Part shown: one piece after another, positions 2,767-61,842 of the stretch
Numbering within the stretch: position 1 is the first letter of the stretch
Layout: every line of letters begins with the position of its first letter
Assembly (NCBI RefSeq): GCF_035084215.1
Contig: NC_090329.1
Location: 108,190,001 to 108,254,000 of the forward strand
Length of the DNA stretch: 64,000 bases
Origin: Heptranchias perlo
Taxonomy: Eukaryota
Direction: 5' to 3'
Notes under the pieces: generated by a model
The model's database searches: none
The model's input: only the letters and a program-made list of their open reading frames with translations
What the model was told of the DNA's origin: nothing
Program-made: the position numbers and the translations under genes

Positions 2767-3177
2767 TTATACTTCACTATCTCAGGGTTGCCCTCCTAGG
2801 AGGCCACTCGCCGGTACCGACCCCGTCCCGGGGGGGGGGGGGGACCCCCTCTTCCCCTGCAAACATCAATACACTTCAAGCCCCCAGTCCTAACTTCCGA
2901 AAGAGAGTCAGCAACCCACAGGACAACATGAGCACTGCATTGTTATTCGGTTGCAGAACAAAGCGACAGGAGTTAAAGAGCCGGCGGGTGTGCACCAGCC
3001 CTGGAGACCCGGCGAAGCCCACGACTGAAACCCTCTGCGCCATCCGCTGCAGGGAGCCGCATTGTTACAGTCCCCCGTGGCTTGTGTGTGTGTGTGTGTG
3101 GAGAGAAACGGTGAGCCTGGGCGACCCGGAGCTCCCCATCGCCCAGATGGAAGGGCCGAGGGCTCGGCCTCACTTAC

Positions 3178-3216
3178 ACTGTCCAGCCGCTTGGCCTCGG
3201 GGTAGTCGTGAGCCAT
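3178..3216 (-). CDS. First coding exon of a host gene transcribed toward the window start (MAHDYPEAKRLDS, phase-0 donor); candidate prolyl endopeptidase (PREP-like) N-terminus
   Basis: ATG at 3216 (acgATGG) lies directly downstream of a CpG-island promoter. 13 codons are followed by a canonical GTAAGT donor (plus-strand acttac 3172-3177). The YPxxxR pattern resembles prolyl oligopeptidase N-termini, but 13 aa cannot fix identity. Confidence 0.5.
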
Positions 3217-3365
3217 CGTTACCGGTCACCGAGCCACCCGCGCCAGGCTCGCACCAACCGCCAGCCCGCCTCGCGCCCGCCGCCGGAAGTGCCCCCCCCT
3301 CCTCCTCCCCGCGCGCGCGCGCGCAGGCGCGGAAGTGAATCCGGGTCACGTGGGCGCGGGCATGA
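3217..3365. promoter_or_regulatory. CpG-island housekeeping-type promoter (ETS x2, NRF1-like site, E-box)
   Basis: CpG-rich non-repeat island at ~2790-3420. CCGGAAGTG at 3283-3291, GCGCAGGCGC at 3321-3330, CGGAAGTG at 3330-3337, GTCACGTG at 3345-3352. Confidence 0.8.
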
Positions 3366-3623
3366 GTTGGCATTGGCAACCTACCCGGAGGAAAGAGACC
3401 AACCGCCGAAGGCTATTCCACCAACCCCCCCTCCCCGGGATCAGGTTGACTCCTTCCCTCCCTCTCTCCCTCCATACTTTGCTGTCTTCCACTCAGCCCA
3501 TTCATCTCTGGAGTGAAGATCCTGCAGGGTTTCCCCCTCCCAAGAGATAAATCGTCCAAATCTCCCAGAACTTGTACCAGAGGTGGTCCAAACCCTGGAC
3601 CATAACCAGCCGCAGGCGGTTCA

Positions 3624-12195: not shown

Positions 12196-12919
12196 GAGGG
12201 TAATTTTAACCCCCAAGAACGGGTGGGCTGGGTAGTAAAATTTGTTGAATTCTTCAGCAGGACTGCATCTCGGCTCCAACGTGCCCACTTCCGGGTTTAA
12301 CTCAGGCTTGTTAGGATGCACGCTCAACATAAACCCGGATAATCCCGTCTCCACTTAAAGCCAGCAGGCTGATATTTAAAGGGGCAATGTACCTCATTGC
12401 GATAGTTGAGGCGCTTAATTTTTTGTGTATTAGAAATGTCAAACAAATTTAACCTTACCTATTCGGGTTTCCCATCGCTTCCGATTCACGTCAGGTGAAA
12501 GCAAGTGGGAAGGAAAGGGCCAGATCCATGAGGTGAGTGCCTTTGTTACATCGCTTGTGGTCCAGAAGGAGGAGGAGTCCTTCATCCAGGCCCATTAAGC
12601 TCACCTGGCTGACGGAGCCCCGCCCCCCGATCTTCTCCAAGGCCCACCCGATGTAGTCCATGTCCTCGTCCCCCAACCTGATTTCTTCCACGATCCACGG
12701 TCTCTCTCTCCCTCCCTCCTGTCTGATTAGTGGGTCTTTTCCCTTTCAACAGGCAGCCAGCCTGTCAATCTGGCTGCGTGCCCCATGGGAAACCCGGTAA
12801 ATGCTTACCTTCAATTAAGTTGCGATTGCAGAATGCAACGCACTTACTTGACTTCCGGGTTCCCCACGCGAATATCTATAAGCACGTTGGGTTCCCGGCT
12901 CCGAGCTAAAATCATGCCC
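12196..12919. mobile_element. Non-autonomous Harbinger (MITE-like) element
   Basis: Imperfect TIRs gagggtaattttaac / gctaaaatcatgccc, with flanks att/atg. Subterminal gcccacttccggg and ttaaagccagc blocks are shared with the autonomous element end at 15513-15700. Confidence 0.65.
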
Positions 12920-14475: not shown

Positions 14476-15985
14476 TACAAAGCATTACTATATTCCAACC
14501 ATCGGGGATCATTTTTTGAGACATCTATTCTTCTTTCAGTTGCTTCTGCCCGCACCATGTTATTGTACCAAATATATCACAATTTTATTCAACACACCTA
14601 CTGTGATCATACATGCCAAACAAAGCTTGTGCATGTGTGTGCGAGCATGGCCTTGTGACTCTCACACTGGCTCAACATCAAATACCAGCAGGAGGTGAGA
14701 TATTGGGTGTTTTAGATGGAGAAATGATCAGTTTTTAGTTGCAATGTAATTCATAGGAACAAGAGTAAGCCATTCGACCCCTTGACCCTGTTCCTCCATT
14801 CAATTAGATCATGGCTGATCTGTACCTCAACTCCATTTACTCGCCTTGTTAGAAAAAAATGAAATATTTTCTATATTATTGATTATCAACCTGTTCAGCT
14901 ATAAGTCAATACCTGTTGTATGATGATCAGAAATTTTCAAAGCAGTTTTTCTTTAACTTATTGATATTTGTACAAGTTATATCCATTTAATTTGAAGTTT
15001 GTTTTTAAGGGCAGCTAACACACCCAACATAATGTGAGTCGCAAGCACATCAATATAGATTGGAATTTCACTGAAAATGGAGCAGAAGCTGTTCCTATGA
15101 TAGGCCTCAGTGAACAAATGTAATTCAGCTGTTCATTTGACTGTGGCTGGGAAATTCCTTGGAGCTGCTCCCGCTCTGCCACCGTGACTTCGCTGCAAGT
15201 TACCCAGTTATTGCATGTAAACGGGGTTCCTGCCGTACTTCTGGTGATGTTTCTCAGTATCACTGAATTCATGGCGCCTCCCTGGCATTAGGCCTGAACA
15301 AATTTTTCTTTTCATATGTATGGAAATGTATCCCATGATACACAGAATATAAAGAAGTCAGCCTTGGCTCAGTGATAGCACTCTCACCTCTAAATTGGAA
15401 GGATGTGGATTGAAGCCCCATTCCAGAGACTTGAGCACATAATCTAGATTGGCACTTCAGTGCAGTACTGAGGGGGTGCTGCCTTTTGGATGAGCCGTTA
15501 AACTGAGACGCCGGGCCCGATTTTAGCACCCGCTATCGGGTGCGTTCTCGGTGGGGGGGGCCTCGAAAATCGTGAAATGCAGGACCCCGACCGGATCCCG
15601 CCTCGATCCCGCCCACTTCCGGGTTCCCCACTGACGCGCTGGCGTGCGCGCGCAGCCCCCGCTGGTGGGAATCCTGCAGGCAATTAAAGCCAGCGGGATG
15701 CCACTTGAGAGTATTTATTTAGCTATTTCAGGTCATTAACTGACCTGATTGAGCTGTTTTATTAAAAAGGGTGGGATTTTACCTTGAACTGAGACTGTTT
15801 CCCATACTGGGGTAAACACTCTGGGCCCGATTTTACCAGGGGTGCGGGTTGGCAGCGGGTGGTCGGGCGGGCTCGAGGAAAACGCGCCGGCCAAATTGAG
15901 TGCGTTGCGCACGCGATCGCGGGATGATTGATGTGATTAGCCGGCAGTTACGGGTTCCGCGCTTCTCAGCTGCGTGCCGGCGGCC

Positions 15986-16031
15986 TGCGCATGCGCATTG
16001 ACGTCTGAGCGATGGTTGCGCTCTATTTAAA
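15986..16031 (+). promoter_or_regulatory. Putative promoter of the inner Myb/SANT gene (NRF1 palindrome + TATA-like box)
   Basis: TGCGCATGCGCA at 15986-15997 and TATTTAAA at 16024-16031, ~50 bp before ATG 16081. Both are conserved in the outer copy (23743-23754, 23709-23716). Confidence 0.6.
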
Positions 16032-16080
16032 GGGGCAGTCCACCAAAGCCCCTCCAGCCACAAACTACACTCCATCAAGG

Positions 16081-17951
16081 ATGGAGGAGCACAGGGGTAA
16101 GGCTGCTCCCCGTTTCACGGACCACGCCCTCCAGGTGCTGCTGGACGGGGTCCGCATGAGGAGGGAGACGCTGTTCCCCACGGATGGAAGGAGGTGCCCT
16201 GCCAGCGCCACCAAGAGGGCATGGGAGGAGGTGGCCGCGGAGGTCACAAGCAGGGGAAACACCACCCGCACTTGGATTCAGTGCCGCAAGAGATTCAATG
16301 ACCTCACCAGGTCCGGAAAAGTGAGTACACTAACGCATTCTGCATCACTCCGTCTTCCACATCACCTCAAACACCTCACAACCCCATCTCCACTGACAGT
16401 ACTGCGCTCCCGCACCAATCCTCACAGCCACCCAACTATCATCCTCACAGTGCCTGCACGTACCCACCGTCCCTGTCCCCACTCGACCACTACCACACAC
16501 CCCAATGCCCATACAATGGGATGGCCATGTGGCACACGCATCCTCCCATCCATCTGGCACACGTTCAACCCAATCACACCAATGCTTGAAGCGTCTCACA
16601 TTGTAATCATCACTCAATAACGTTTTTGTGTTTTGCCCTCACAGGAGAAGAGGGCCAGGAACGCACGCGATAGGGCATGCACCGGAGGGGGCCCGCCACA
16701 CGAGGTGGCCCTGACAGACGCCGAGGTCGAGGCACTGGAGATCAGCCGCACGCTGCATTGCCTGTCGATGGCGGATGGCGAGTCTGGTTCTGGCGAAACG
16801 GCCGGTAAGGGAAAGCTGGCACTCATCACTCATGATCGTGAATGATCGTAGCATCACATGGCATATGCCGCACCGCCACATTTGGTCACATGCCTGATAT
16901 TTCCCTCTGTTCTCTTCCAGGACCGTCTGCGATCGACGTCTCGGTTGAGGGCGATTCCTCAGAGGACATGCCCGTCTCTGAGGGTGCATCGTCACACATG
17001 AGCCTTGCATCCACCAGCGCAGATACACACACCTCGGTGGGTCCCCCCCCTCAGCTAGTTGGGATTGCACATGGTGAGTCACCGCGCACACATGAGCATG
17101 AGCAGACCCTGGTGGCAGGGTCAGCCGCGGAGGGTCCGCGTCGGTGGGAGCACTCTTCTCCAGGCTTTGCTCAGCCGGACCCAGATGCTGAACCCAGGGG
17201 GCCACCTGTCAAAAGGAGAGTCGTCGAGGGGCACCAGAACATTGCTGAGGTACTGGGAGAGGTGCCACGCGCACTCTCCACAATCGCACGGAGGATGGAG
17301 GAGTCCAACTCCTGCATGAGGGGAATGGTGGCACAGGTGCAGGAGGGTATCGCCGAGATAGTGTCGCAGGGACGTGAAGGCATCTCTGAGATAGTGTCGC
17401 GGGTAGGTGTGGGAACGTCTGCGGTGGAGGACAGGCTAGCCTCCCTCGAGCGTCACGCACAGCTCACCAATGAGTCCATCCAGGCCCTCACAACGGCTGT
17501 TCGGATTCAGGGTGAACAACATTCTGCCGCCATCAACAGGTTGACAGATACATTGGAGGTGGCCTTGCAAGGTCTCACCCACGTCATCCAAACTGCCGTC
17601 CAGCAGGGTGGAAGGGGTGATGTGGGCCTTGGCCATGAGAGGGAAGATGGTGAACGGGGAAATGGAAGTGTGGACGCTACTCAAGGCGCCCCCAAGTCTC
17701 ACCCGTTGCCCCCCTCTCAACCAGTGCCCGCAATAGTCCATCCTCTCCAGGTGGCCGAGTCTGCCCCTGCACAGGTGCAGGAGGAGCAGTCTGTGGAGGT
17801 GCCCTCACGGGCACCGAAACCCAGGGGGCGTCGGCCCAAAGCATCTACCCGGTCAGGGCACGAACAGGAGCAACCTGCCACCACCTCTGCTGGAGCCACA
17901 GGGGTAGCACCACGTAGGGGGTCCCGAAAACGAACGCCTAAAGTTCCGTGA
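16081..17951 (+). CDS. Harbinger Myb/SANT-like DNA-binding protein, 3 exons (16081-16320, 16645-16804, 16921-17951), 476 aa
   Basis: Exon 1 encodes APRFTDHALQVLLDGV...AWEEVAAEV...RTWIQCRKRFNDL. Donors gtgagt (16321) and gtaagg (16805); acceptors cacag (16644) and ttccag (16920). 240+160+1031 nt stays in frame to TGA. AATAAA at 18021. Confidence 0.9.
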
Positions 17952-18248
17952 GCACACAGGGATTGCAACAGGGTGTTTGTCGTTTTTTTTTAATTTTCTA
18001 CTCTTTGAATGTCACCACAAAATAAACTCACTTTTTCTCACCAATGCTGCCACCTCTTGTCCATAATTCTGCGGCTTGTGCAATATATCCCTTCCCTGCG
18101 CCTCATCATGACGACGACCACCCCGTCCCACCCATTGAGCATAATCCAGTGGGTGCAGGTGTACAGGCACCACTCTTCTGTGGAGGGAGCCTGTATGGAC
18201 CCTCGTCTGTGCACGTTATGACATGTGAACGCCTCACACAGTGTGATG

Positions 18249-19484
18249 TTAGGAGAACCGTTGGCATATGAGTGCCTCCCTGGCCTGACGAGCACGCAGG
18301 TGAGCCGGTGTTCGGCGCATGGGTCGTTCCTCCTCCTCTCCCTCTTCCTCCTCCTCCTCTTCCTCCTCCACCTCCTCCTCATTGTCGTCCTCAATGTGGG
18401 TGGCGGGTGTGCATGGGGCCTCCTCCAGCGGCACCCCTCTCTGTAGTGCCATGTTATGCAGGGCACAGCAGACAACTATAATTCGTCCCACTCTGAATGG
18501 CGTGTATTGGAGCGCTCCCCCGGAACGATCAAGGCACCTGAAGCGCATCTTGAGCAGCCCTATAGCCTGCTCAATTGTAGACCTGGTAGCAATGTGGCTG
18601 TCATTATACCGACGCTGTGGCTCGGTAATGGGGTTCCTCAGAGGTGTCATAAGCCACGTGTGCAAGGGATATCCCTTGTCGCCGAGGAGCCAGCCGTTGC
18701 CGGCGTTGGGTGCGTGGAAGAGGGGCGGGACGGTGGACTCCCTGAGGACGAAGGCATCGTGGCAGCTGCCAGGGTATCTGGCGCACACGTGTAGGAATCT
18801 CTGGCGGTGGTCACAGATGAGCTGGGCGTTCATGGAGTGATACCCTTTCCTGTTGATAAACAGCCCTGGCTCATGTGGAGGTGCCCGTATTGCTATGTGG
18901 GTGCAATCGATTACACCCTGCACCCGTGGGAAGCCAGCCATGGCATGGAATCCAACCGCCCTCTCCGTCTGGCTGCGCTCATCCATGGCGAAGTTGATGT
19001 AGGTCGAGGCCCTGCGGAACAACCCATCGGTGACCTGCCTTATGCACTTGTGTGCAGACGACTGACAGACCCCGGTGATGTCCCCCGTGGCACCCTGGAA
19101 GGATCCGGAGGCGAAGAAGTTGAGGGCAGTGGTGACTTTGACGGCGACGGGTAAGAAGATGCTGCTTGGTCCATCCGGGAGCAGCTCGTCATTGAGGAGG
19201 CTGCAGATGTCGGCGACTACCTGGCGAGTGACTCTGAGCCTCCGTATGCACTGCTGCTCAGAGAGGTCCATGAAGCTGAGCCTCGGTCTGTAGACCCTGT
19301 GCGGAGGGTAGTGCCTCCTGCGACGCATCTCTCTCTGCGGATGCCCTCCATCCTGCTGTGCAGGTGGATGTGCCGCAGCACCGTGTTGTGGGGATGCATG
19401 TCTCTGAGGCGGACGGCGTGGACTGCGAGGCTGCTGAGGCTGGTCATCCTGTTCGTCCTCCGAGGATGTCAACGCAGCACCCAT
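18249..19484 (-). CDS. Harbinger DDE transposase (HARBI1-like nuclease), intact 411 aa
   Basis: VKVTTALNFFASGSFQ HTH region, GVIDCTH, NRKGYHSMNAQLICD, YPGSCHD, LLGDKGY, RSTIEQAIGLLKMRFRCL, CCALHN and an acidic tail. It lies inside TIRs, so it is a transposon gene rather than domesticated HARBI1. Confidence 0.95.
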   Translation of the reverse strand: MGAALTSSEDEQDDQPQQPRSPRRPPQRHASPQHGAAAHPPAQQDGGHPQREMRRRRHYPPHRVYRPRLSFMDLSEQQCIRRLRVTRQVVADICSLLNDELLPDGPSSIFLPVAVKVTTALNFFASGSFQGATGDITGVCQSSAHKCIRQVTDGLFRRASTYINFAMDERSQTERAVGFHAMAGFPRVQGVIDCTHIAIRAPPHEPGLFINRKGYHSMNAQLICDHRQRFLHVCARYPGSCHDAFVLRESTVPPLFHAPNAGNGWLLGDKGYPLHTWLMTPLRNPITEPQRRYNDSHIATRSTIEQAIGLLKMRFRCLDRSGGALQYTPFRVGRIIVVCCALHNMALQRGVPLEEAPCTPATHIEDDNEEEVEEEEEEEEEGEEEERPMRRTPAHLRARQAREALICQRFS

Positions 19485-20260
19485 CTGGCAGGTTTAGGTT
19501 TGCGGGGTTGTGAACGCTAGAAAAGTGTGTCCTCGCACAGGGGTTGGACTTCCACGCCGGTGAATCTTCTTGCTTGGAGGAGGGTGGTGGAGGGCAAGCG
19601 TTGCCCAATGTTACGGAGTGTCCTCCTGCGTTGGTGAAGGCTCTCCCCCCCCCCACCTGTGGAATGCACCTTGGCAGCTGCCACAGGCTGCTGGCTGCAA
19701 CACGTCCGTTGAGAGTGTGAGTGTTTCCCCCAGTATGGGAAACAGTCTCATTTCACTGTAAAATCCGACACCTGTTAAATAAACAGCTCAATCAGGTCAT
19801 TTAATGACCTGAAATACCAAGATAAATACACTCAAGTGGAACCCCGCTGGCTTTAATTGCCTGCGGGATTCCCACCAGCGGGGCCAACGCACGCACCCCC
19901 GCACGTCAGCGCGCAACCCGGAAGTGGGCGGGATCGAGGCGCGATCCGGTCCCGCTCCTCGAAACCGGGATTTTAGAGGCCCCCCCGCCGAGAACGCACC
20001 CGGAACCGGGTGCTAAAATCGGGCCCTCTCACTCCAAACGGACGTGTTGCAGCCAGCAGCCTGTGGCAGCTGGCAAGGTGCATTCCACAGGTTGGGGGGG
20101 AGAGCCTTCACCAACGCAGGAGGACACTCCGTAACATTGGGCAACGCCTGCCCTCCACCACCCTCCTCCAAGCAAGAAGATTCACTGACGTGGAACCGCA
20201 ACCCCGGTGCGAGGACACACTTACCTACCGTGCACAACCCCTCAGACCTACACCTGCCAG

Positions 20261-21487
20261 ATGGGGGCCGCCTTGACATCCTCGGAGGACGAACAGCATC
20301 ACCAGCCCCAGCAGCCTCGCAGTCCACGCCGTCCGCCTCAGAGACGTGGATCCCCACAACACGGTGCTGTGGCACATCCACCTGCACAGCAGGAGGGAGG
20401 GCAACCGCAGAGAGAGATGCGTCGCAGGAGGCACTACCCTCCGCACAGGGTCTACAGACCGAGGCTCAGCTTCATGGACCTCTCTGAGCAGCAGTGCATA
20501 CGGAGGCTCAGAGTCACTCGCCAGGTAGTCGCCGACATCTGCAGCCTCCTTAATGACGAGTTGCTCCCGGATGGACCAAGCAGCATCTTCTTACCCGTCG
20601 CCGTCAAAGTCACCACTGCCCTCAACTTCTTCGCCTCCGGATCCTTCCAGGGTGCCACCGGGGACATCACCGGGGTCTCTCAGTCGTCTGCACACAAGTG
20701 CATAAGGCAGGTCACCGATAGGTTGTTCCACAGGGCCTCGCACTACATCAGCTTCGCCATGGATGAGCGCAGCCAGATGGAGAGGGCGGTTGGATTCCAT
20801 GCTGTGGCTGGCTTCCCACGGATGCAGGGTGTAATCGATTGCACCCACATAGCAATGCGGGCACCTCCACATGAGCCAGGGCTGTTCATCAACAGGAAGG
20901 GGTATCACTCCATGAACGCCCAGCTCATTTGTGACCACCGCCAGAGATTCCGACACGTGTGCGCCAGATACCCTGGCAGCTGCCACGATGCCTTCGTCCT
21001 CAGGGAGTCCACCGTCCCGCCCCTCTTCCACGCACCCAACACCGGCAACGGCTGGCTCCTTGGCGACAAGGGATATCCCCTGCACACGTGGCTTATGACA
21101 CCTCTGAGGAACCCCATCACTGAGCCGCAGCATCGATATAATGACAGCCACATTGCTACCAGGTCTGCAATTGAGCAGGCTATAGGGCTGCTCAAGATGC
21201 GCTTCAGGTGCCTTGATTGTTCTGGGGGAGCGCTCCAATACACGCCACTCAGAGTGGGACGAATTATAGTTGTCTGCTGTGCCCTGCACAACATGGCACA
21301 ACAGAGAGGGGTTCCGCTGGAGGAGGCCCCATGCACACCCGCCACCCACATTGAGGACGACGATGAGCAGGAGGAGGAGGAGGAGGAGTACGAGCGAGAG
21401 GAGGAGGAATGACCCATGGGCCGAACACCGGCTCACCTGGATGCTCGTCAGGCCAGGGAGGCACTCATATGCCAACAGTTCTCCTAA
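20261..21487 (+). CDS. Harbinger DDE transposase of the outer copy; premature TGA at 21410-21412 removes the last 25 codons
   Basis: Same motifs as 18249-19484 (about 23 aa differences by eye before the acidic tail). CGA(Arg) has become TGA after the poly-Glu; the frame continues PMGRTPAHLDARQAREALICQQFS to TAA 21485-21487. Confidence 0.9.
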
Positions 21488-21788
21488 CATCACACTGTCT
21501 GAGGCGTTCACATCTCATCACGTGCACAGACGAGGGTCCATACCATCCCCCTCCACAGAAGAGTGGTGCCAGTACTCCTGCACCCACTGTATTATGCCCA
21601 ATGGGTGGGACCGGGTGTTCGTCGTCATGATGAGGCGCACGGAAGGGACCTATTGCACAAGCCGCTGAAGAATGGACAAGAGGTGGCAGCAGTGGTGAGA
21701 ACAATTGTGTTTATTGTTAATGTGCATTCAAGGACTAAAAATAAAAACCTAACAATTTGTCAGACACCCTGGTGCATTCCCTTTGTGT

Positions 21789-23659
21789 TCAAAAAACCTT
21801 TGCTTTACGTTTTCGGGAACCCCTACGTGGTGCTACCCCTGTGGCTCCAGCAGAGGTAGTGGCAGGTTGCTCCTGTTCGTGCCCTGACCGGGTAGATGCT
21901 TTGGGCCGACGCCCCCTGGGTTTCGGTGCCCGTGAGGGCACCTCCACAGACTGCTCCTCCTGCACCTGTGCAGGGACAGACTCGGCCACCTGGAGAGGAG
22001 GCACCATTGCGGGCACTGGTTGAGAGGGGGGCAACGGGTGAGACGTGGGGGCACCTTGAGTAGCGTCCCCACTTCCATGTCCCCGTTCACCATCTTCCCT
22101 CTCATGGCCTAGGCCCACATCACCCCTTCCACCCAGCTGGACGGCAGTTTGGATGACCTGTGTGAGACCTTGCAAGGCCACCTCCAATGTATCTGTCAAC
22201 CTGTTTATGGCGGCAGAATGTTGCTCACCCTGAATCCGAACAGCCGTTGTCAGGGCCTGCATGGACTCAATGTTGAGCTGTGCGTGACGCTCGAGGGAGG
22301 CTAGCCTGTCCTCCACCGCAGACATTCCCGCACCTACCCGCGACACTATCTCAGAGATGCCTTCACGTCCCTGCGACACTATCTCGGCGATACCCTCCTG
22401 TACCTGTGCCACCATTCCCCTCATGCAGGAGTAGGACTCCTCCATCCTCTGCGCGATTGTGGAGAGTGCTCGTGGCACCTCTCCCAGTACCTCGGCAATG
22501 TGCTGGTGCCCCTCAACAACTCTCCTTTTGACTGGTGGCCCCCTGGGTTCAGCATCTGGGTCCGGCTGAGCAAAGCCTGGAGAAGAATGCTCCCACCGAC
22601 GCGGACCCTCCGCGGCTGACCCTGCCACCAGGGTCTGCTCATGCTCACATGTGCGCGGTGACTCACCATGTGCAATCCCAACTAATTGAGGGGGGGGACC
22701 CACCGAGGTTTGTGCAGCTGCGCTGGTGGATGCTTGGCTCATATGTGACGATGCACCCTCAGAGACCGGCATGTCCTCTGAGGAATCGCCCTCAACGGAT
22801 ACGGCGCTCGCAGACGGCCCTGCAAGAGAACAGTGGGCAATATCAGGCATGTGGACAAATGTTGCGGTGCGGCAGATGCCAGGTGATGCTAAGATCATTC
22901 GCGATCATGAGTGCTGAGTGTCAGCTTTCCCTTACCGGACGTTTCTGCAGACCCAGCCTCGCCATCCGCCACGGACAAGCAATGTAGCGTGTGGCTAATC
23001 TCCAACGCGTCCACTTCGGCGTCCGTCAGAACCACCTGGTGTGGCGGGCCCCCTCCAGTACGTGCCCTTTCCCGGGCATTCTTGCATCTCTTCTCCTGTG
23101 AAGGCAAAACACCAATGCGTAATTGAGTGATGATTGCATTGTGAGACGCTTCAAGCATTGGTGTGGGTGGGTTGAGCGTGTGGCAGATGGATGGGATGAT
23201 GTGTGTGCCACATCCGCATCCCATTGTATGGGGATTGGGGTGTGTGGTAGTGTTCGAGTGGGGACAGGGACGGTGGGTACGTGCAGGCACAGTGAGGATG
23301 ATAGTTGAGTGGCTGTGAGGATTGTTGCGGGAGCGCTGTGGTGTCAGTGCAGAAGAGGTTGTGAGGTGTTTGAGGTGATGTGGAAGACGGAGTGTGGGAA
23401 AGTCCGTTAGTGTACTCACTTTCCCGGACCTGGTGAGGTCATTGAATCTCTTGCGACACTGGATCCAAGTTCTGGTGGTGTTGCCCCTGCTGCTGACCTC
23501 CGCCGCCACCTCCTCCCATGCCCTCTTGGTGGCGGAGCCAGGGCACCTCCTTCCGTCGCTGGGGAACAGCGTCTCCATCCTCCTCCTTACCCCGTCCAGC
23601 AGCAGCTGGAGTGCGTGGTCTGAGAATCGTGGGGCAGCCTTACCCCTGGGTTGCTCCAT
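21789..23659 (-). CDS. Harbinger Myb/SANT-like protein of the outer copy, 3 exons (23659-23420, 23095-22936, 22819-21789), 476 aa
   Basis: Exon sizes (240/160/1031) and GT-AG sites are identical to the inner copy; open through to the stop. Confidence 0.9.
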
Positions 23660-24699
23660 GTTGCGCTACCTCTTGTTTGCAGCTGGAGGGGCATTGGTGA
23701 ACTGCCCCTTTAAATAGAGCTCCACCATCGCTCAGACATCACTGCGCATGCGCAGGCCGCCGGCGCGCAGCTGAGAAGCGGAGAACCCGTAACGGCCGGG
23801 TAATTACCTCAATTATCCTGCGATCGCGCGCGGGACTCACTCAATTCACCGGCCGCGTTTTCCACGCGCCCGAAGGACCACCCGCCGAGAACCCGCACCC
23901 CTGGTAAAATCGGGCCCCCCATCTGCCTGTTCAGATGAATGTAAAAGATCCTATAACACCACTTGAAGAAGAGCAGGGAGTTTTCCATGTTTTGTGGCCA
24001 ACATTCATCCCTCGACTAACACTGCCAAAAACAGATTATGTGGTCATTTATCTTTGTGCTGTTTGTGGGACCTTGCTATGTGCAAATTAGCTGTTGTATT
24101 TGCCTGTATTACAACATTGACTACACTTCAAAAGTACTTCATTGGCTGTGAACTGCTGTAGGACGTACTAAGGATGTGGAAAGCGCTGTATAAATGAAAG
24201 TTTTTTTCTGACAATAATGCGTTACTCTGAAGAACCAGAAATGTTATTTATTACGGTAAATCTGGCGCAGCAGTTCTGGGGTGTGGCTTAATGCCCAATG
24301 CAATTGTCATTTTTGCAACCAGCAAATCCTGTGTGAAAGTTGGGGAAGAGGTCTGGAATCACAAGATAGGATCAGAAAAAGGTTAGGCCTCTGACAATAA
24401 TACAGTTTACATTATGCACTCAAGCCCATTCCCTTTCATTTTTCCCCCTACTTTCCCGATGATGCTGTTCCATAGGTGCCAGTATCCATCTGGTACTTAG
24501 CCCTAGTGGCTATTTTTCATGTGAACCTAGACTGAATTTCAGCAGGTTATTCAATTGTGAGGACATCATAACTAAGCTCTCATTTAACATCTATACATTT
24601 ACATTTTCCTTCAAAATGTGTTGCACGGTGATCAGGAGTCAATTGTAACTCATAACAACTTTATTTTAATAGTTAAAATATTTGTACCTCCTCATGATA

Positions 24700-29879: not shown

Positions 29880-30112
29880 GAAGAAGCAGTGCATGATGAG
29901 GCTTGGGTTCACAAAGGAGGCTGTGACTGACACGCCTCACCTGGGTCACAAAGACCTGCAAGGACAATCAACTCTCCACACTGCACTATCATTAGCAGTA
30001 AAAGTCACCGCTGCTCTGTAACATTTATGCCACTGGATCCTTCCAGTTACCCACCGGGGGTATCACAGGAGTCAGTCACCTTTCCATGCACCACTCTATT
30101 GAGGAGGTAACT
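29880..30112 (+). pseudogene. Ancient Harbinger transposase N-terminal relic
   Basis: Translates across frameshifts as QCMMRLGFTKEAVTD...ALSLAVKVTAAL...YATGSFQLPTGGITGVSHLSMHHSIEEVT, colinear with the transposases at 18-21 kb and 61 kb. Confidence 0.75.
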
Positions 30113-30429
30113 ACTAAAGTTTGTCTAAATTGTTGGCTTCCCTGAGATACAGGTCATCAATGGCTGTACACAGATAGGCCCCAAAATTCCTCAGGGTTCC
30201 ACTGGTCCTCTGGCAGAAGACTGGCAGTCAGCAGACCCCTGCCAAAAATACAGCAGAGACCCGCCAGGATTGTAAGGGATGGAGCCTCCATCTGCTCCTT
30301 AAAAGGCAAATGACAGCCAGGGGTGGGAACTCGTGCCCAACTGCATTTTCAGTGTAACTACATGACATAGGCCTGTATGCAAGATTGTTTTGGAGCTGGC
30401 ATGTATGGATATGGTACTCATTTAACATG

Positions 30430-31041: not shown

Positions 31042-31202
31042 GGGGGTAATTTTAACTTTTATCACGGGTGAAAACAGGTGACAGCGTATCGGCAGCCCGT
31101 TTTACACTTGGCCCAATTTTCTTTCCCAAATTGGGTGTAAAATGGGCGGCCGATTTGCTATCACTTGTTTATCACCGGGCAATAGAGGTTAAAATCACCC
31201 CC
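31042..31202. mobile_element. Palindromic Harbinger-type MITE (~160 bp)
   Basis: TIRs gggggtaattttaac / gttaaaatcaccccc with near-complete internal self-complementarity. Relatives at 40470-40606 and 45587-45762. No clear TSD. Confidence 0.65.
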
Positions 31203-39057: not shown

Positions 39058-39927
39058 GGGCATGATTTTAGCCTGGGGGCAGAGTGGAACTCCTGTCGGG
39101 AAATCTGGAAGTATGGCTTTCCTGGATGTCCTTATGAGTTTGACGTAAGGATGTCGTTTTTTTCTTTTTTGCCGGTTTCCAGCCCGACAGGCCGGCCTGA
39201 TTGACAGGCTGGCTCTCAGTCGGACGGGAGAAGAGCCAGGAAGAGGACGTGTTCAGGTAAGTGTTAGATGGGGGGCCATTGTGGGGGGGTGGGGTCGGAT
39301 GTCATGGGGGGTCGGGGTCACGGGGGTTGGGGGTCACCGGGCAGTTAGTCATGGGGGGGGGGTCAGTCATCGGGAGGTCAAGGGTCACTGGGAGGATCAC
39401 TCATCTGGGGGCTGTCAGTCATCGGGTGGGGGGGGTCAGGGTCGGAGGTCATCATGGGGTCGGGGGTTATCGCTGGGTTGGCGATGGTGGAGGGTCAGAG
39501 ATCGTGGTGGGGGGTCGGAGATCATAGTGGGGGGTTCGGAGATTGTGGGTGGGGTTGGAGATCATGGGGGGAGGTTTCGGATACCATGGGGGTGGGCGCT
39601 GCAGGTAGGCTTGTTGGGCCTGGGGGAAGCACTCCTGCTCCTCTGGGCCCACAAGCAGTGCTATAAAGGCACTTACCTGCAGTTTCGGGTCTTCTTGCCT
39701 CCTTTCACGCGGCGTGAAGGAGAAGGCCCGGGGATCAGAAAAGCTTTGAAAATGGAGGCCCGCCACCTCCTTAACAGCTTTCACTGACTGACCCGCCTCC
39801 TAAGAACGGGTTAGTCACCCGCTCCACCTCCCCTCCCCCCCCACCCCGTGAAAGTGGGTTTTAGATTTTTGCAATTGTTACTGCCCTGCCCCCAACCCAC
39901 CCGTTTTTCCAGGCTAAAATCATGCCC
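39058..39927. mobile_element. Non-autonomous Harbinger element, TSD CTG
   Basis: 19-bp perfect TIR GGGCATGATTTTAGCCTGG / CCAGGCTAAAATCATGCCC. CTG at 39055-39057 and 39928-39930. G-rich degenerate repeats inside. Confidence 0.88.
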
Positions 39928-47546: not shown

Positions 47547-49010
47547 ACATCGGGACCTGACTGCCATTTTAACTGGTGGCACTCGGAACAGGTGAGAAAT
47601 CGGCTGGCTAGGTTTAAATGAGGCCCGTGAGTTAAAATAGCCTGGGATATTAACTCAGGGATATTAAGGCTAATTGTGACACCTCTACAACTGCTCAGCT
47701 ATCAGTTAACACAGCATAGAAAAAAAAGTGAACCTTGAACCTTCCTGGTCTGTGTGGCTCAGCTGAGTACTGATCAATTGGGAAGCTCTTAATTAATCTT
47801 TGATGCACATGCCAGCAATTTCTATTCGTGTCTCATAGCTCTGTCATGCATCACTTGCCACCATTTGGTAATTTTTACTTGAGTCACATTAAAACTAGTG
47901 AATTAATCTTTCCACAAGAATCTATTTCCTCGTCAACAATGATAAAAACAAAAATAATGTACATTTATATAGTGTCCTCAATGAAGAACATGAACACTGA
48001 GCAGCATTTGGGAGATTTAGGTGAGGTGACTAAAAGTGTGGTAAAATAAATAGGTTTTCAGTAGGCTTTTAAAGGTCAGGAGCAAGATAGCAAAGCAGAG
48101 GAGTTTAGGAAGGGAGATGTAGAGAGTAGACCCGAGTCATTTCAAGCCCAAGTTTTGCTCATTGAAAGAACAAAATGGTGCTTGACCTGGCCCAGGTTAT
48201 TGAGAAGTGCAAAGGCATACCAAGTATGGCAATGTGGCAATGTTACATCACTATAATATAATCTATTATGTAGACATTCCTGCTTTTAAAAACAGACTTC
48301 TGATTCTCTCCAGCTTAATTCCAGAGTAGAAACATCCTTAATTGTGGCCTTTTTTGTTGCCTTTGTTTATTTTTAAAATTTAGTTTGAATTCCAAAGCTT
48401 TGATTGCTACCGAAATTTATCTGTTCGCAGGAAATATGAGTCTGAGTTGAATATGGAAGGAAAACAGCAAAAGTTCTGAATCAGTGAAGTTTTGGACTCC
48501 CATTGTGGTGGGATACTGAAGGAGCTTGATTCAGAAACAGTGGCCTTTTATTTCTGGGTAGTAACATGCATGACAAATTTGATGCCCCACTTTATTAATA
48601 TCCTCAATGTATTGTCTATGGGCTTAGGTCAGAGATTTCAGACTGTAATGTTAACGACCTGATAAAACATCGTAACAATTCCATGATTTCCATACTTGGT
48701 TTGTTATCATTTGTGAGATTGACCAGCTAGCGCGATCCATTAAGGGACTTGGAACAGGTTGCTCTGGCGTGGGATTCTTCCCACTCGGCTTCAGATAACC
48801 CTGCAAACCAAAGCCCTAACATGTTGTGTTCACTGGCATGGTTTTAGCTAGTTAAACTTCAGCAGTACCCCTGTGCACACTCGGCTCGTCACCATGTACC
48901 TAAGCTGTCTAGATTTAGGTATGATGTGGAGATGCCGGTGATGGACTGGGGTGGACAAATGTAAGGAATCTTACAACACCAGGTTATAGTCCAACAGTTT
49001 TATTTGAAAA

Positions 49011-49047
49011 TCACAAGCTTTCGGAGCTTACCTCCTTCGTCAGGTGA
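49011..49047 (-). ncRNA. Minimal type I hammerhead ribozyme motif (minus-strand copy)
   Basis: Reverse complement is UCAC-CUGACGA-A-GGAG(guaag)CUCC-GAAA-GC-UU-GUGA. Confidence 0.75.
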
Positions 49048-49141
49048 GTGAGTGAAAGGTTCTAAAATCACATAGCATATATTAGGCTAGATCGTCTCCC
49101 AGCCTAATATATACTATGCGATTTTAGAACCTTTCACTCAC

Positions 49142-49178
49142 TCACCTGACGAAGGAGGTAAGCTCCGAAAGCTTGTGA
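49142..49178 (+). ncRNA. Minimal type I hammerhead ribozyme motif (plus-strand copy)
   Basis: Stem I UCAC/GUGA, core CUGACGA (49146-49152), stem II GGAG/CUCC, GAAA (49167-49170), palindromic AAGCUU helix III. Predicted cleavage after 49174. Confidence 0.75.
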
Positions 49179-51269
49179 TTTTCAAATAAAACTGTTGGAC
49201 TATAACCTGGTGTAGTAAGATTCCTTACATTAGATTTAGGTAAGCGGAAGGTGTCCCTATGAAGGGAACATGTGCAATCTGTCTTGTGCAAACAGGAACC
49301 CTACCTATGTGAATTTCCGGGTAGCATTTCTCCAAGGGTTCTGCCAATCCTCTGCCAAAATTATGGCAGTAGATCATTAGCAACCACTGGAAATTCAAGG
49401 GACAGGAGTACAATCTCAAAATGTGCTAACAGCATAAAAGAAAGCGGTTTGGTATACCGTGAGAAGAACTAGAAAAAAAACAGGAGGATGTAGAGAGGTT
49501 AGTGGAATAAGCAGAGAGGTGGCTGATGCAATTTAATGTAGAAACCAAGAAATTTAAGATAGAAACTAACCAAACTTAGAGAGGATAAGACTTCGAGTCT
49601 GGATGGATTGCATCTGTGCATACTAAAAGGAGCTAGGGAAGAGATAGCAGAGGCCTGGAATGCTTTCCACAGGGAGTGGTTGAGACAGAGATCATTGCAT
49701 CTTTTAAGGGAAACATGGATAAATATTACAAGCATAGGAAGATACAGAACTATAGGGAGAGAGCAGGACAGACACAATGGCCTTCTTATATCCTGTAAAT
49801 TTTTATAGTTCTATGGACATTTTAGAGGTTGTGTAATTATGGTCTGGGACATAAAAGATACCAAGCCACTATTTGAAAAAGATCAGGGAGTTCTCCCCAT
49901 ATCCTGGAAACCATTCATCCCTTAACCATCATCATCAAAAAATATTATCTGATTATTTATCTCATTTGCTATTTGTGGGATTTTACTGTGCATAAATTGG
50001 CTGCAGCACTTGCCTACATAATAACAGTGACTGTATTTCGAAAGTAATTTGCTGACAGTGAGGTTCTTTGGGACTCCCTGAGATCATGAGAAGCGCTATA
50101 ACAATGCAAATTCATTCTTGTTAATCCTAGATTTGTCCCTTTGCTTGCTTGAAGTAGTAATTCCCCATCACATAGTCCCCTAATGCTGAGAGGAGGCAGG
50201 AAGGCTGGACATGGGCATTCTCTCATCAGCTGATGTGACTGATTGTTCCTCTTAATGTCTCAGCGAGTAAATGCTGAGGTTCTTAGGCTACAAGGTCCCA
50301 GGTTCAATTTCAGGTTTGTGCTGAGTTAGCTGATCTCAGCCAGGGCAGGAATCTGTGTATTTAGGAGATAAGGAAAAAACTAGAGGAGGGGGAAGGCCTA
50401 GCAGAACTGAAAATTGGTAAGAGGAAAAATTGACTGTATCAGTTTCCATCCTCGCCCATTTTGAGTTGGAGTCACCCACCATAAAGGGGTACCTTGGAAT
50501 TTAACTCGTCGCCATCTAATTGGGTACAAGGAGCTCCAATAGATGTTGTCCTGTCTCACTCACTGCTTAGTTCATTGTTTACAAGAAGGTTATACAACAA
50601 TGAAGTATACCACAACTGAGGAAGTCTGTTAGAGCATGAGCAAGGAGCCATGTTTCCTCCCCCAGTTTTATCTCCTCCTCTTCTGAATTTGGTGACTTAT
50701 GCTGGAATATGGTTAATGTGGACACTGGGCACCATCCGGTACCTCACCTAAGTGGCCATTTGTCATATGTGAAGTCTGACGGTGACTGCCGGCAACCTAT
50801 TTGACCGTATGGGAGTATCGCAGCAAGTCTGATACGGTCCTTGCCAAACATCAACATGCGCACTTTCCAGCAAAATCACTGGATATCAGTTAAAAGCGGG
50901 AATCAAGGCTAATTTCTCCCTTTCTAACCCAGGGAACAACTGCAGCACCCGTACAGCCATGCCAACCTGGGAAAGACCCAGCTTTGACCCCTGGTCAGTG
51001 CTGAATTAGCTGATTGCAGTAGAGCTATTACAGTTGGACTCAATATCTAGCCATTTCCTATTAAGGCTCAAGTATGAGGAATTGCCAGTTGGGCAGTTAT
51101 CAGAGAGCATCATGCACCCAGGGTCAACACCTTCAGGAAAAGAGTAGAGAAAGTTCAAAAAATAAAATGTGAAAAATTAACTGTATTCTCTAAAAACAAA
51201 ACTAGATATGCTAATAAAACAAGCAATAATGAACGTCTGGCAGTGAGTCTACAGCAGTAATTCAGCTTC

Positions 51270-58364: not shown

Positions 58365-58576
58365 ATCCCAATAATTCTGCCTGTCTGTCCTTTTCACCCT
58401 GAATATCTGATTACAGGTATGGTATTGACCAACCTCATATAAATTGACAGAAATGAATTTTTTCCTGCCACATTAAAAAATTTGCATTTATACAATGCCT
58501 TTCACAACCTTACCTCTTAAAGATGCAGGTGCACGTTTCAAATGGCAGGTACACAGTTTACTTGGAGAAGGGAAAG

Positions 58577-60420
58577 ATGGCCAGGAGGATAGTAGGACTG
58601 GCACGAGAGAGGGCTCCACACTTCTCCAATGATGCTCTGGAGGCCCTGGTGGAAGGTGTGGACGAAAGGACGGCCAACATGTACCCGCAGGGAGGCTGGA
58701 GACCCTCCAGACTGCAGATCTGCAGGCATTGGCAGGCTACGGTGCAGGAAGTCAATGCCAGGAGCATTGCACCACGCACGTGGTCAAGGTGAGTGAATGC
58801 AAGTGTCAAATGGTACATCCTACCAACTGCACCACTGCTCCACTGCTCCATGCATCACACTCCCTGTCACCCACCCACCAACAAACACTGCCCATCCATA
58901 CGCAATGCTGCACTCGGTGTGCTGCATCTCACCCGCACATAGTACCATACTTGCAGGCCACACAACCACCACTCACAAGTCACGCAAACTGGCAGCTATT
59001 TGACCATGACAGGCACATCACTCACACACCTTGCAGGAGACTCACTGACACACTGTCCTCTGTCTTGCAGGTGAAGGTGGCGCATAACAGCTGGCAGCAG
59101 GAGGGACCTGAGGGTGGACGGGCACGTTTACACATCCTCACCCCCCTAGGGGAGACAGTGCTTAGGATCATTGGGAGGGCCATCACAGCAGCCATCACAA
59201 CACGCCGCGCTGGAAGTCCCGGTCAAGGGGCTCTCTGCATATCTAATGCTCCTTCTCCTTTTCCACATCTCCCTCTTCCCATAATCTTTTCTGACTCACG
59301 TGCTGCAGATGCTGTCAGCACACACCTCTTACTTGCTCTTCTCCCCACTCCACAACTCAACCTGTTTCCCATCGTCATTGCAGATACCCAAGAATACGTG
59401 GCGGCACCGTCCGAGGAAGAGGAGGGAGACACTGAAGCCACACCATCACTCGATCTGACTCTTGCTTCCACCAACACAGAGACTGACACTGCGAACTTTA
59501 GAGGTTAGGTTAGAGGAGGGATCTGCACGTGGTGAGACACCGGCACAAGTGCACAGGAGCCGGGGCGGGGGGAACAGATACCACAGGTGCCAGCTTGCCG
59601 GAGGGAGAGGTCGCTCACTAGTTCTGCTGCAGAGGAATCAGATGAGGACTTCGATGGACCAGGCTACAGAAGACGGCTGATGGGCGTACACCACCAAATG
59701 CTTGGGGCACTGGAAAACCTGCCAGAAAGCCTGTGCACAATGAGAAGGGGCATGGAGGAGTCCAGCCCCAAATTGGCCCAGGGCTTTGCGCAGAGCTTGG
59801 AGTCCATCCTTTCCCACATGGAACGGGTGGTCACCTCCATCAGTGCACCTGTGGAACCCACCATGATTCAGCGTCTGATGACTGATGTCACAGTTTCCAT
59901 TGCAGCACAAACATCTGCCATCCAAGGTCTGACTGATGCATTTGGAGCTCAGACGGGGGCCTTGGAAGCTCAGATTGCTGCTATTGTGGGTCTGGGGACC
60001 ACTGTGGAATGGGGCTTCCAGGGCGTCACAGCACTCCAGCAATCCGTTCTCCAGCTGATCACCAGGATTGCTGAGGCGCCGCCCCGGGAGAGTGGCAGTG
60101 GCACCATGGCAGTCGGACCTGCTGTCCTCTCTCAGGACGACAGCCTTCCTGCTCCAACCCCTGCCACTCCACCAGTGCCCCTGCTGCCTCTCGGCCAGCC
60201 AGGCCAGGCTGCTGCAGCCCATGATGCGGTCTGAAGCCGGGCCCTCCAGGCCCAGAGCTACTCAAGGTCGTCTTCCAAGGCTATCTGCATGCTCCTCCAT
60301 TGAAGGTCAGCAGCCTTCCACCACCCATGCTCAGCAACTGGGGAAGCACCTCATAGGAGCACTAGGATAGGTAAAGGCACACGGACACAGGCACTAAGGG
60401 AATGCACAAGGGTGAATAGT
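58577..60420 (+). pseudogene. Harbinger Myb/SANT gene relic (exon 1 58577-58788, exon 2 from 59071, exon 3 from 59384)
   Basis: RERAPHFSNDALEALVEGV...WQATVQEVNARSIAPRTW, but the QCRKRFNDL helix is deleted. The exon-3 region has RRGMEESS, like RRMEESN of the intact copies. Frameshifts present. Confidence 0.75.
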
Positions 60421-60616
60421 TCTGTTATGTTTGCATAATTTCATTTCTTCATTGATAAATGAGACTTTGATTTTGAATTTGTTGGTGGTTTTTATTTATG
60501 CAATGAGCTGAGAGGGACACCAATCTGTAATCAGATGGAGGGCGATTTGATCGTCTTGTGGGAGCGGAAAGGTGGGGAGTGTAAGACTGTTGGTGAGTTG
60601 GGGGATGTAGTTCACA

Positions 60617-61842
60617 TTATTGATAGCGGGCACAGATCAGGCGAGCACGCAGAGCCTTTGCAGACAAGACGTGTGGTTCCTGTTGCACCCTTGCGTCTTC
60701 CACCACTTCCTCTTCCGGTTCCACCCCCTCCTCCTCCTCCTCAGCCTCTTCCTCCTCCTGTTCCTCTGCCTCTTCCTCCTCAGCCTCCTCCTCATCCACC
60801 TCTGGCTCAGGGTCTTCTCCAATCATTGGTTGCAAAGACTGGTCCATCATGATGGCAAGGTTTTGCAGCATGCAGCAGACCACCACAAATCTGCCTACCC
60901 ACTCAGGGGAGTACTGCAGGGCTCCTCCAGACCGGTCCAGGCAGCAGAAGCATTGTTTGAGGAGACCTATGGTGTGCTCTACAATGTTGCGTTTGACAGC
61001 ATGGCTCTCATTATAGGCCCGCTGTGCACGTGTGCATGGGTTCCTGACCAGTGTCATAAGCCATGGCGTGAGGGGATAGCCCTTGTTGCCCACTAGCCAG
61101 CCTTTGACTTGCCGAGTTGGGTGAAAGAAAGCTGGCACGTTGGACTGCCGCATGACGAAGGCGTCATGACTGCTCCCAGGGTAGCGGGCATCGACCTCCA
61201 TGATTCGATGCGTGTGGTCGCACACCAGCTACACTTTGAGGGAGTGGAAGCCCGTTCGGTTGACGAAGACGGCTGAGTTGATGTGCGGGGAACGCAGGGC
61301 AATATGCGTGCAGTCAATGGCACCCTTCACCATGGGAAGCCAGCAATGCGGGCGAACCCCCGTGCTTGCTCGTTCTGCTTGTCTTTTTCAAGAGGAAAGG
61401 TGATGAACCTGTTCCTCATCTGGTACAGTGTGTCTGTGACCTCCCTTATGCAGCAGTGCATTGCATACTGTGAGATGTTGCACTTGTCGCCAGCAGAGGC
61501 CTGAAATGCTCCTGAGCCTTAGAAATTCAGTGCCACGGTGACCTTCACAGCCACAAGCAATGCTGTCCTCGCCCTGCTCTGAGGCTGCAGTTGTGGCTGC
61601 ACCAGTTGACAGATCTCGGTCACGGCTTCCTTGGTGAACCTCAGGTGTCGGATGCAATCCTCCTTGGTCACGTTGAGGTCAGAGAATTGATCTCTGAAGG
61701 CCATCACTGGGTAGGGCCTCCTGCTCAGTGCCCTGTGCCTCCTCGTCCTCCGTCTCCCGACAGCTTGACCTGCTATGCGTGGTCTCTCTGCATGTTCCCA
61801 GTCATGCTCAATGCCCAGCGGGAGCCCTAGCAGACCGCCCAT
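60617..61842 (-). pseudogene. Harbinger DDE transposase pseudogene
   Basis: ORF pieces 61519..61842 (LRFTKEAVTEIC, VAVKVTVALNF, then stop) and 60617..61225 (YPGSSHD, GNKGY with the catalytic D changed to N, RNIVEHTIGLLKQCF). Confidence 0.88.

Follow-up and report, generated by a model that had tools for sequence, protein, structure and literature searches.

A classic double Ds consists of one Ds element inverted within another. The nest described here resembles this maize structure, since same-family elements are inverted so that unlike ends are directly oriented. It also differs from it: double Ds belongs to the hAT elements, whereas the nest belongs to the Harbinger superfamily and has a 3-bp TSD and two genes. 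Moreover, the copies in the nest are full-length and gene-bearing and derive from distinct sublineages rather than a local hop. By analogy the nest may at most work like a double Ds, and it is not a member of that class. In Ac/Ds, directly oriented pairs of 5' and 3' ends are described as substrates of sister-chromatid transposition and breakage (PMC3239180), and nested Ds elements are thought to be selected against (PMC3260210).

Related systems exist within the superfamily itself. Tourist-type MITE multimers of rice and maize are nested same-family copies that arose via independent insertions, and in rice multimers are reported to hold more than 10% of 6,600 MITEs (PMC5172404, there citing Jiang and Wessler 2001). 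These are short non-autonomous plant elements, whereas the nest combines two 4.2-kb coding elements in a shark. The MtPH-M-2-IIa composite of Medicago is likewise described as a PIF/Harbinger copy targeted by a related element; its host copy is ancient and broken, while both shark copies are near-intact (PMC2213677). The nest shares with zebrafish Harbinger3_DR and the shark HARBI1-type elements a DDE_Tnp_4 transposase paired with a Myb/SANT partner, a likeness judged from the proteins. The TSD core given for Harbinger3_DR is CWG (PMC3016246), in contrast to TCT and GCC/CCC in the nest. No paper describing an antiparallel nest of two autonomous vertebrate Harbingers was found among the top-ranked literature matches, which is weak evidence of absence. 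The nest is an accident of an already described kind, not a new system.

The locus lies in a stretch of 64,000 nucleotides from Heptranchias perlo, analysed here as a whole (the window). It is a three-level nest, in which one Harbinger resides within a related Harbinger that itself interrupts an older SINE. Its features are as follows, with the supporting evidence in parentheses.

15357..15512, + strand: SINE 5' half with tRNA-like head, ending in GCC at 15510-15512 (BLAST/MAFFT against window paralogs)
15510-15512 and 23918..23920, + strand: outer TSD, left copy GCC and right copy CCC (junctions, SINE alignment)
15513..15822, + strand: outer Harbinger, first 310 bp, transposase-side end, with TIR at 15513-15525 (85% to inner 20026-19719)
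15820-15822: left TCT copy of the inner-insertion TSD, in the outer element (junction reading)
15823..20026, - strand: the complete inner Harbinger of 4,204 bp, in the opposite orientation to the outer copy (junction alignment, TIR matches)
15823-15835 and 20014-20026: inner TIRs of 13 bp, on the Myb side and the transposase side, respectively
16081..17951, + strand: inner Myb/SANT gene, exons 16081-16320, 16645-16804 and 16921-17951 (gene model; PF13873, E=1e-10)
18249..19484, - strand: inner DDE transposase, 411 aa, open (PF13359, E=1.3e-36)
20027..20029, + strand: right TCT copy of the inner TSD (junction reading)
20030..23917, + strand: remainder of the outer Harbinger, with Myb-side TIR at 23905-23917 (91% to inner 19721-15823, colinear rejoin)
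20261..21487, + strand: outer transposase (PF13359, E=4e-36)
21789..23659, - strand: outer Myb/SANT gene, exons 23659-23420, 23095-22936 and 22819-21789, 476 aa, open (profile search, gene model)
23921..24208, + strand: SINE 3' half; the tail has a T-rich run at its end (68-80% matches to 8 window paralogs)

A first-pass annotation had placed four TIR ends at 15513(+), 15823(+), 20026(-) and 23917(-). Each of them is an exact copy of the 13-bp end GGGCCCGATTTTA, and these 4 are the only zero-mismatch matches in the 64 kb. Allowing up to two mismatches raises the count to 8, a number reached by none of 100 shuffles. The TIRs of both elements are perfect over 13 bp. The perfect TCT TSD that had been read around the inner copy is present at 15820-15822 and 20027-20029. 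In silico excision of 15823-20029 restores a colinear outer element of 4,198 bp that aligns end to end with the inner copy. In this alignment to the reverse complement of the inner element (4,204 bp), 3,828 of 4,190 ungapped columns match (91.4%), and none of the 22 gap columns falls at the rejoined junction. The TSD and the colinear rejoin back the annotation's proposal that one Harbinger lies antiparallel within the other, 310 bp inside its transposase-side end. An arrangement of two head-to-head elements plus an orphan end is ruled out by the gap-free rejoin of the outer copy.

Inverted arms of 3.9 kb are a difficult structure for assemblers, and the nest is judged here from the assembly alone. 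A fold-back read or a mis-join of dispersed copies could in principle produce such an arrangement. However, the window is without any N and the arms differ throughout, which makes a fold-back artefact unlikely: they are 8.6% divergent along their whole length, and the longest identical run is 146 bp. The exact TSD, the gap-free rejoin of the outer copy and the rejoining of the SINE halves also speak against an assembly error, which we consider very improbable.

Both elements carry a 3-bp TSD of the PIF/Harbinger type, TCT/TCT for the inner copy and GCC/CCC for the outer copy, where it corresponds to a 3-nt excess in the SINE. The outer TSD is imperfect, with one mismatch, and does not appear in the first-pass annotation. 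Neither TSD fits a TWA or CWG core, although these cores are typical of many families rather than universal. A separate MITE at 39058-39927 has a CTG TSD.

Both copies have the coding content of an autonomous PIF/Harbinger element. Each encodes a transposase of the DDE_Tnp_4/HARBI1 type, with PF13359 matches above cut-off and homologues named HARBI1; the best matches are elasmobranch proteins annotated 'putative nuclease HARBI1', at 62-76% identity. The second gene is of the Myb/SANT type in both copies (PF13873/PF13837, spliced ORFs of 476 aa). In the inner copy this gene is open, with GT-AG introns and splicing as in the RefSeq relatives P0121-P0123, and the transposase retains the motifs DCTH, LGDKGY and IEQ at 190, 266 and 304. 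The outer transposase has a premature TGA at codon 384 (21410-21412), past its DDE motifs, where the inner copy has CGA. In each element the two genes run towards each other and end at poly(A)-like signals of their own. A search for shared subterminal Myb-binding motifs found nothing clear except the TIR and its 7-8-mer echoes. Elsewhere in the window, a Pfam search of 300 of the 305 unmasked ORFs of at least 45 aa gave a single weak LINE-endonuclease match. Another reading considered was that the arms lie in a host intron and yield a long hairpin RNA; it was set aside, as no host exon was found in the window by a search that short exons would escape.

The sequences flanking the outer copy can be rejoined into one SINE, as the first-pass annotation had recognized. 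Joined, they match a further SINE copy, at 4058-3651, in one alignment of 422 columns with 72% identity, with the 3-nt excess as TSD. With a copy near 40.2 kb that spans the junction as reference, the score is highest (72) when exactly 3 nt are trimmed, and the 6 alternative trims score 57-70. The head contains degenerate A-box-like (15365-15375) and B-box-like (15407-15418) sequences, identified by eye against the consensus of these boxes, and Rfam returned no match at the gathering threshold. The interrupted element may be akin to SacSINE1, which it resembles. SacSINE1 of sharks, an abundant and old elasmobranch SINE, is described with a tRNA head, a Deu domain and an L2 tail; the rejoined SINE, at ~444 nt, is close to the upper range of 425-463 bp given for its copies in skate and whale shark (PMC5499810). 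Window paralogs of the SINE are 66-80% identical while the Harbinger ORFs are nearly intact, which argues that the SINE is older than both Harbingers.

The differences between the two Harbingers bear on how they came to be together. Their coding sequences have diverged under purifying selection, with a dN/dS of 0.32 over 883 codons (95% CI 0.24-0.44; Fisher p 2e-12). The copies differ by 139 transitions and 223 transversions, whereas for 16 other pairs of repeats in the window the count is 298:133. This excess of transversions means that most of the 8.6% divergence is not post-insertion decay. Double Ds forms by local transposition (PMC7584900), and the similar geometry would allow an element to have entered its own sister-chromatid copy here, followed by divergence in place. 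Under that history dN/dS would be neutral, at about 1, and frameshifts and CpG transitions would be numerous, but the transversion excess and the dN/dS of 0.32 are instead accompanied by 0 frameshifts and one stop. A local hop is hardly credible on these grounds, and in-place self-duplication is ruled out by the dN/dS and the transversions unless the host selected both gene pairs.

The inner and outer copies instead come from separately replicating sublineages. Of the 47 Myb differences, 23 are private to the inner copy and 7 to the outer copy. Ten relatives of Myb exon 3, all named H. perlo, span 58-100% identity and reveal a family with multiple subfamilies. The RefSeq relative P0121 may be this very locus or a sibling copy. 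Synonymous divergence is uneven along the elements, with a dS of 0.076 in the transposase, 0.11 in Myb exon 3, and 0.36 and 0.67 in Myb exons 1 and 2 (chi-square p 4e-12). Gene conversion between the arms might produce such differences between gene segments, but the arms share no identical tract longer than 146 bp, and recombination between subfamilies explains the pattern equally well.

Both insertions look young. The 2.67 kb of coding sequence contains 0 disabling changes in the inner copy and 1 in the outer copy. The 95% upper bounds on decay are 1.2-2.0% for the inner and 1.9-3.2% for the outer copy if indels are assumed to be 5-10% of substitutions, and 4-8% if indels are ignored. These figures point to probable decay of about 2-3% or less in each copy.

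An ordinary series of cut-and-paste events is probably the best account of the locus, with the SINE first, then the outer sublineage, then a sister sublineage inserted in inverted orientation. An old SINE would have been struck by a full-length Harbinger of one sublineage, creating a 3-bp duplication that now carries one mismatch. Later, a copy from a sister, more derived sublineage would have excised elsewhere and entered the outer element inverted, 310 bp from its transposase-side end, duplicating TCT. The outer transposase would thereby have lost its native upstream region, and it would have gained its late stop. The landing may have been largely a matter of chance in a genome with many relatives: if the genome is taken as 3-4 Gb with 1,000 full-length copies, about 0.5-0.7 chance nests are expected. 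With only 300 copies the expectation is ~0.05, and a targeting bias would be needed.

The first-pass annotation proposed the same order. It holds in so far as the SINE is oldest and the inner copy came after the outer one, while the data leave both this SINE locus and a donor site as places where the inner copy could have arrived. Its 'two rounds' of movement apply trivially to every nest; the data contribute the further point that there were two sublineages. Arrival in an outer copy that already resided at this SINE is likely, being weakly favoured by the imperfect outer TSD, the outer stop and CpG decay (27 outer versus 17 inner, p=0.17).

Movement of the whole 8.4-kb unit by the outer ends, which the annotation also raised, is geometrically possible. 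A composite formed at a donor locus might then have entered the SINE in a single jump. In favour of this, the outer ends are preserved together with the first 310 bp of subterminal sequence and form a correct pair, and a rice 'megatransposon' is reported to consist of two mPings plus 8.1 kb (PMC7584900). Such a jump nevertheless seems improbable. Of the two TSDs, the outer is mismatched and the inner perfect, and the outer copy is also the one with the stop and with more CpG decay (not significant). Larger PIF/Harbinger elements are reported to excise and reinsert less well (PMC10288884), and the inner ends would compete.

Alternatively, the family may carry a preferred target ~310 bp inside its transposase end, so that nests recur there and separate the resident transposase from the promoter. 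The target of Harbinger3_DR is a conserved 15-bp palindrome. The inner site, AAACAC-TCT-CACTCC, agrees with the flank consensus given for zebrafish Harbinger3_DR (PMC3016246) at 8 of 12 positions, including all 6 of the left half. Scores of at least 8 occur at only 17 of 4,184 outer positions, and a perfect half-site at 4 of 4,184; at the corresponding place in the inner copy the score is 9/12 (4 of 4,190 positions). This comparison is post hoc, with n=1 and a motif taken from a distant family. When the central triplet is counted, the inner site scores 8/15 and 147 of 4,184 positions do as well. The outer insertion site scores 6/12, which is reached by 9% of window positions, and the values at the sites of three MITEs are 7, 3 and 6. 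Self-targeting is unlikely on balance. A still more doubtful extension is that it would repeatedly drop new sublineages into older ones, uncouple the resident transposase and build vertebrate chromosome breakers resembling double Ds. If self-targeting were true, two transposase genes would face each other head to head across a single end that contains GC-box/ETS motifs, and the family would have a built-in route to self-limitation and genome rearrangement.

Target immunity is a trait of bacterial Mu, Tn3 and Tn7. The annotation's statement that this family shows no target immunity is too strong for one event (n=1), and same-family nesting is already reported for Tourist-type MITEs of the same superfamily (PMC5172404).

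The four ends of the nest combine into pairs of three kinds. Two pairs are correct and bound the inner 4.2 kb and the whole 8.4 kb, two consist of ends of the same type that point inward, and two join unlike ends in direct orientation, namely 15513/15823 and 20026/23917. This double-Ds geometry had escaped the first-pass annotation. By analogy with Ac/Ds, the direct unlike pairs might serve as substrates for sister-chromatid transposition and for breakage, provided that the locus is not silenced. No report of chromosome breakage by such a geometry was found for Harbinger in the literature consulted, and no rearrangement is visible at the locus, where both SINE halves are in place. The nest thereby poses a testable point, namely whether the transposases of PIF/Harbinger elements act on unlike ends in direct orientation, or on two like ends.

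Recurrence of nests at this position across the genome would give the locus more weight. As it stands, the locus is a clean marker for relative dating, which places the SINE, an older Harbinger sublineage and a derived sublineage in order. The inner copy is probably the part that can move and, judged by the integrity of its ORFs, offers itself as a candidate for an active Harbinger in a vertebrate. Near-intact autonomous Harbingers appear to have moved recently in a shark.

Every feature that the first-pass annotation assigned to this nest, a Harbinger within a same-family Harbinger within a SINE, was found where that annotation placed it. The nest and the other features of the window are as follows:

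15823-20026, inner Harbinger, complete, antiparallel to the outer
15513-23917, outer Harbinger, interrupted 310 bp from its transposase-side end
15357-24208, older host SINE, split by the outer Harbinger
12197-12919, Harbinger-like MITE with related ends
31042-31202, Harbinger-like MITE with related ends
39058-39927, Harbinger-like MITE with related ends and a CTG duplication
58500-62356, distant degraded autonomous Harbinger (transposase on minus strand, 42-55% identical; Myb on plus strand)
29881-30191, additional transposase fragment
48958-49231, near-perfect palindrome (131-nt arms 98% complementary, 12-nt spacer), probably a young foldback element
3000-3400, CpG island of 57 CpG/kb in which ETS-like and E-box-like motifs were noted by eye, probably a host-gene promoter or first exon; the gene possibly lies on the minus strand and extends beyond the window

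The 13-mer GGGCCCGATTTTA has exactly four zero-mismatch occurrences within the 64 kb, which are the four element ends. Past base 13 these ends are of two types, transposase-side (15513 and 20026) and Myb-side (15823 and 23917). TCT is present on either side of the 4,204-bp inner element. As the annotation had proposed, excising this element in silico with one TCT leaves a gap-free junction and a 4,198-bp outer element colinear with the inner one; it aligns end to end with the reverse complement of the inner element at 91.4% identity. The outer target-site duplication (TSD), GCC/CCC, has one mismatch. The SINE halves also rejoin across the outer element, giving a single 422-column hit (72%) to a SINE copy at 4058-3651, which carries its own deletion at the junction; against a copy near 40.2 kb the fit is best with 3 nt trimmed. 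Self-BLAST of the window yields inverted matches between 15513-15821 and 20026-19719 (85%) and between 15823-19721 and 23917-20026 (91%). Such inverted arms might be a fold-back assembly artefact, but this is unlikely because an artefact predicts identical arms, whereas these diverge throughout (longest identical run 146 bp).

Each element carries two genes, one for a DDE_Tnp_4 transposase and one for a Myb/SANT protein, the layout described for PIF/Harbinger (PMC13668399). The transposase, Myb partner, terminal inverted repeats and 3-bp TSDs place both in this superfamily, with TSD cores (TCT; GCC/CCC) that are atypical for it. The inner transposase (411 aa) and Myb gene (476 aa, three exons, GT-AG introns) are open, as is the outer Myb gene (476 aa). 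The outer transposase has a TGA at codon 384, downstream of the catalytic motifs. The best 39 of 120 listed transposase matches are all elasmobranch proteins, and all ten Myb exon 3 matches are named Heptranchias perlo (58-100% identity). These matches point to a shark as the host, probably of that species. P0121, a RefSeq relative, matches 375 of the 376 inner Myb residues from 101 to 476; it may represent either this very locus or a sibling copy. Two other RefSeq models, P0130 and P0127, splice host-like coding sequence (in P0130, a CDK2-like kinase) to the family's Myb exon 3, fusions that would represent exonisation or mis-annotation. No host exon was found among 300 of the 305 unmasked ORFs of the window, and an Rfam search returned no match. 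The SINE presumably resembles SacSINE1. The SacSINE1 family is described in PMC5499810.

The inner and outer coding sequences differ by dN 0.046 and dS 0.141 over 883 codons, and dN/dS is 0.32 overall (CI 0.24-0.44; transposase 0.48, Myb 0.28). Their differences comprise 139 transitions and 223 transversions, compared with 298 and 133 in 16 other repeat pairs of the window (16 of 20 rows were kept; the 4 dropped were both Harbinger rows, one identical tandem pair and the self-hit of a palindrome); the p value for this contrast, 4e-18, is inflated because control pairs overlap. Together, dN/dS and transversion richness indicate that most divergence built up under selection with both lineages still replicating, which excludes local self-duplication. 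Unlike those of the window's SINE and LINE pairs, inner/outer mismatches (15513-23917) are clustered, with 59 adjacent pairs against 31 expected. The transversion excess and clustering may reflect a mutational process of actively replicating copies.

When 47 Myb differences were polarised on six relatives, 23 were private to the inner copy, 7 were private to the outer, 14 showed both states and 3 were unresolved. The inner lineage is thus more derived; in the tree, branching among outer, inner and the RefSeq relative P0126 is not separable. Synonymous divergence is uneven across 16081-19484 versus 20261-23659 (dS 0.076 to 0.67), and in Myb exons 1-2 dS is above intron divergence (about 10%). 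The unevenness suggests mosaic subfamilies or conversion, plus constrained introns.

With no disabling changes in the inner element and one in the outer, upper bounds on post-insertion decay are about 1.2-2.0% and 1.9-3.2%, respectively, for indels at 5-10% of substitutions (4-8% with indels ignored). Judged from sequence, both Harbingers would be recent arrivals; the SINE is far older (66-80% identity to paralogs). The imperfect outer TSD, the outer stop and CpG decay (outer 27 versus inner 17, p=0.17) favour, weakly, the order given in the annotation, SINE then outer then inner. The alternative to this order, a pre-formed composite jumping into the SINE as one unit, seems improbable.

The most likely reading, which we consider probable, is that a copy of the younger sublineage excised elsewhere and that ordinary cut-and-paste then put it into a resident older Harbinger. 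Whether chance is adequate depends on family copy number: for an assumed genome of 3-4 Gb, about 0.05 nests are expected with 300 copies, 0.5-0.7 with 1,000 and 5-6 with 3,000. The insertion point precedes the ATG of the outer transposase by 231 bp, GC-box and ETS-like motifs of that gene are displaced by 4.2 kb, and the inner element's equivalent end, in reverse, is now directly upstream. This displacement may silence the outer transposase or cause both transposases to be driven divergently. A 21-bp near-perfect palindrome in the transposase-side subterminal region (19792-19812), kept in the outer copy with one change, has AGGTCA-like halves, AGGTCA being a nuclear-receptor half-site.

Target immunity is a trait of bacterial Mu, Tn3 and Tn7. 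Its absence, which had been read from this nest, adds little, since same-family nesting is already in print and a single event is no measure. Within PIF/Harbinger, published cases include Tourist-type MITEs (PMC5172404) and a nest of related elements, the Medicago composite (PMC2213677). The nest is real and well preserved, and same-family nesting itself is already known; top-ranked literature matches included no report of two autonomous Harbinger copies nested in a vertebrate.

Six pairings are possible among the four ends. One delimits the inner element (4,204 bp) and one the whole 15513-23917 unit (8,405 bp); two more join like ends that face inward (4,514 and 8,095 bp), and the last two join unlike ends in direct orientation. 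The nest shares its layout with maize double Ds without belonging to the Ac/Ds elements. In Ac/Ds, directly oriented unlike pairs lead to sister-chromatid transposition as well as to breakage, deletions and inversions (PMC3239180), and selection is believed to act against nested Ds (PMC3260210). By analogy, the direct unlike pairs here could be substrates for transposition and breakage of this type. The haplotype is free of rearrangement, with the four ends and both SINE halves all in position. Aberrant transposition of linked mPings, including a two-element megatransposon, has been inferred in rice (PMC7584900). Both mPing ends act alike (PMC9921582), which would make like-like pairings plausible here. 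Excision and reinsertion are reduced for larger elements (PMC10288884), which makes the inner copy a likelier mobile unit than the 8.4-kb whole.

The family's own transposase-side end might carry a Harbinger3_DR-like target. The flanks of the inner target match those of the Harbinger3_DR consensus (PMC3016246) at 8 of 12 positions, a score that 17 of the 4,184 positions in the outer element reach; within the inner copy, the homologous site scores 9 of 12. However, when the central triplet is included, 147 of the 4,184 positions equal or better the inner target; the outer site scores 6, the three MITE sites score 7, 3 and 6, and the match was spotted before scoring. We regard such a built-in target as doubtful, and the recurrence of nests at the same position genome-wide as slightly less likely still. 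Such recurrence, if true, would raise the importance of the nest.
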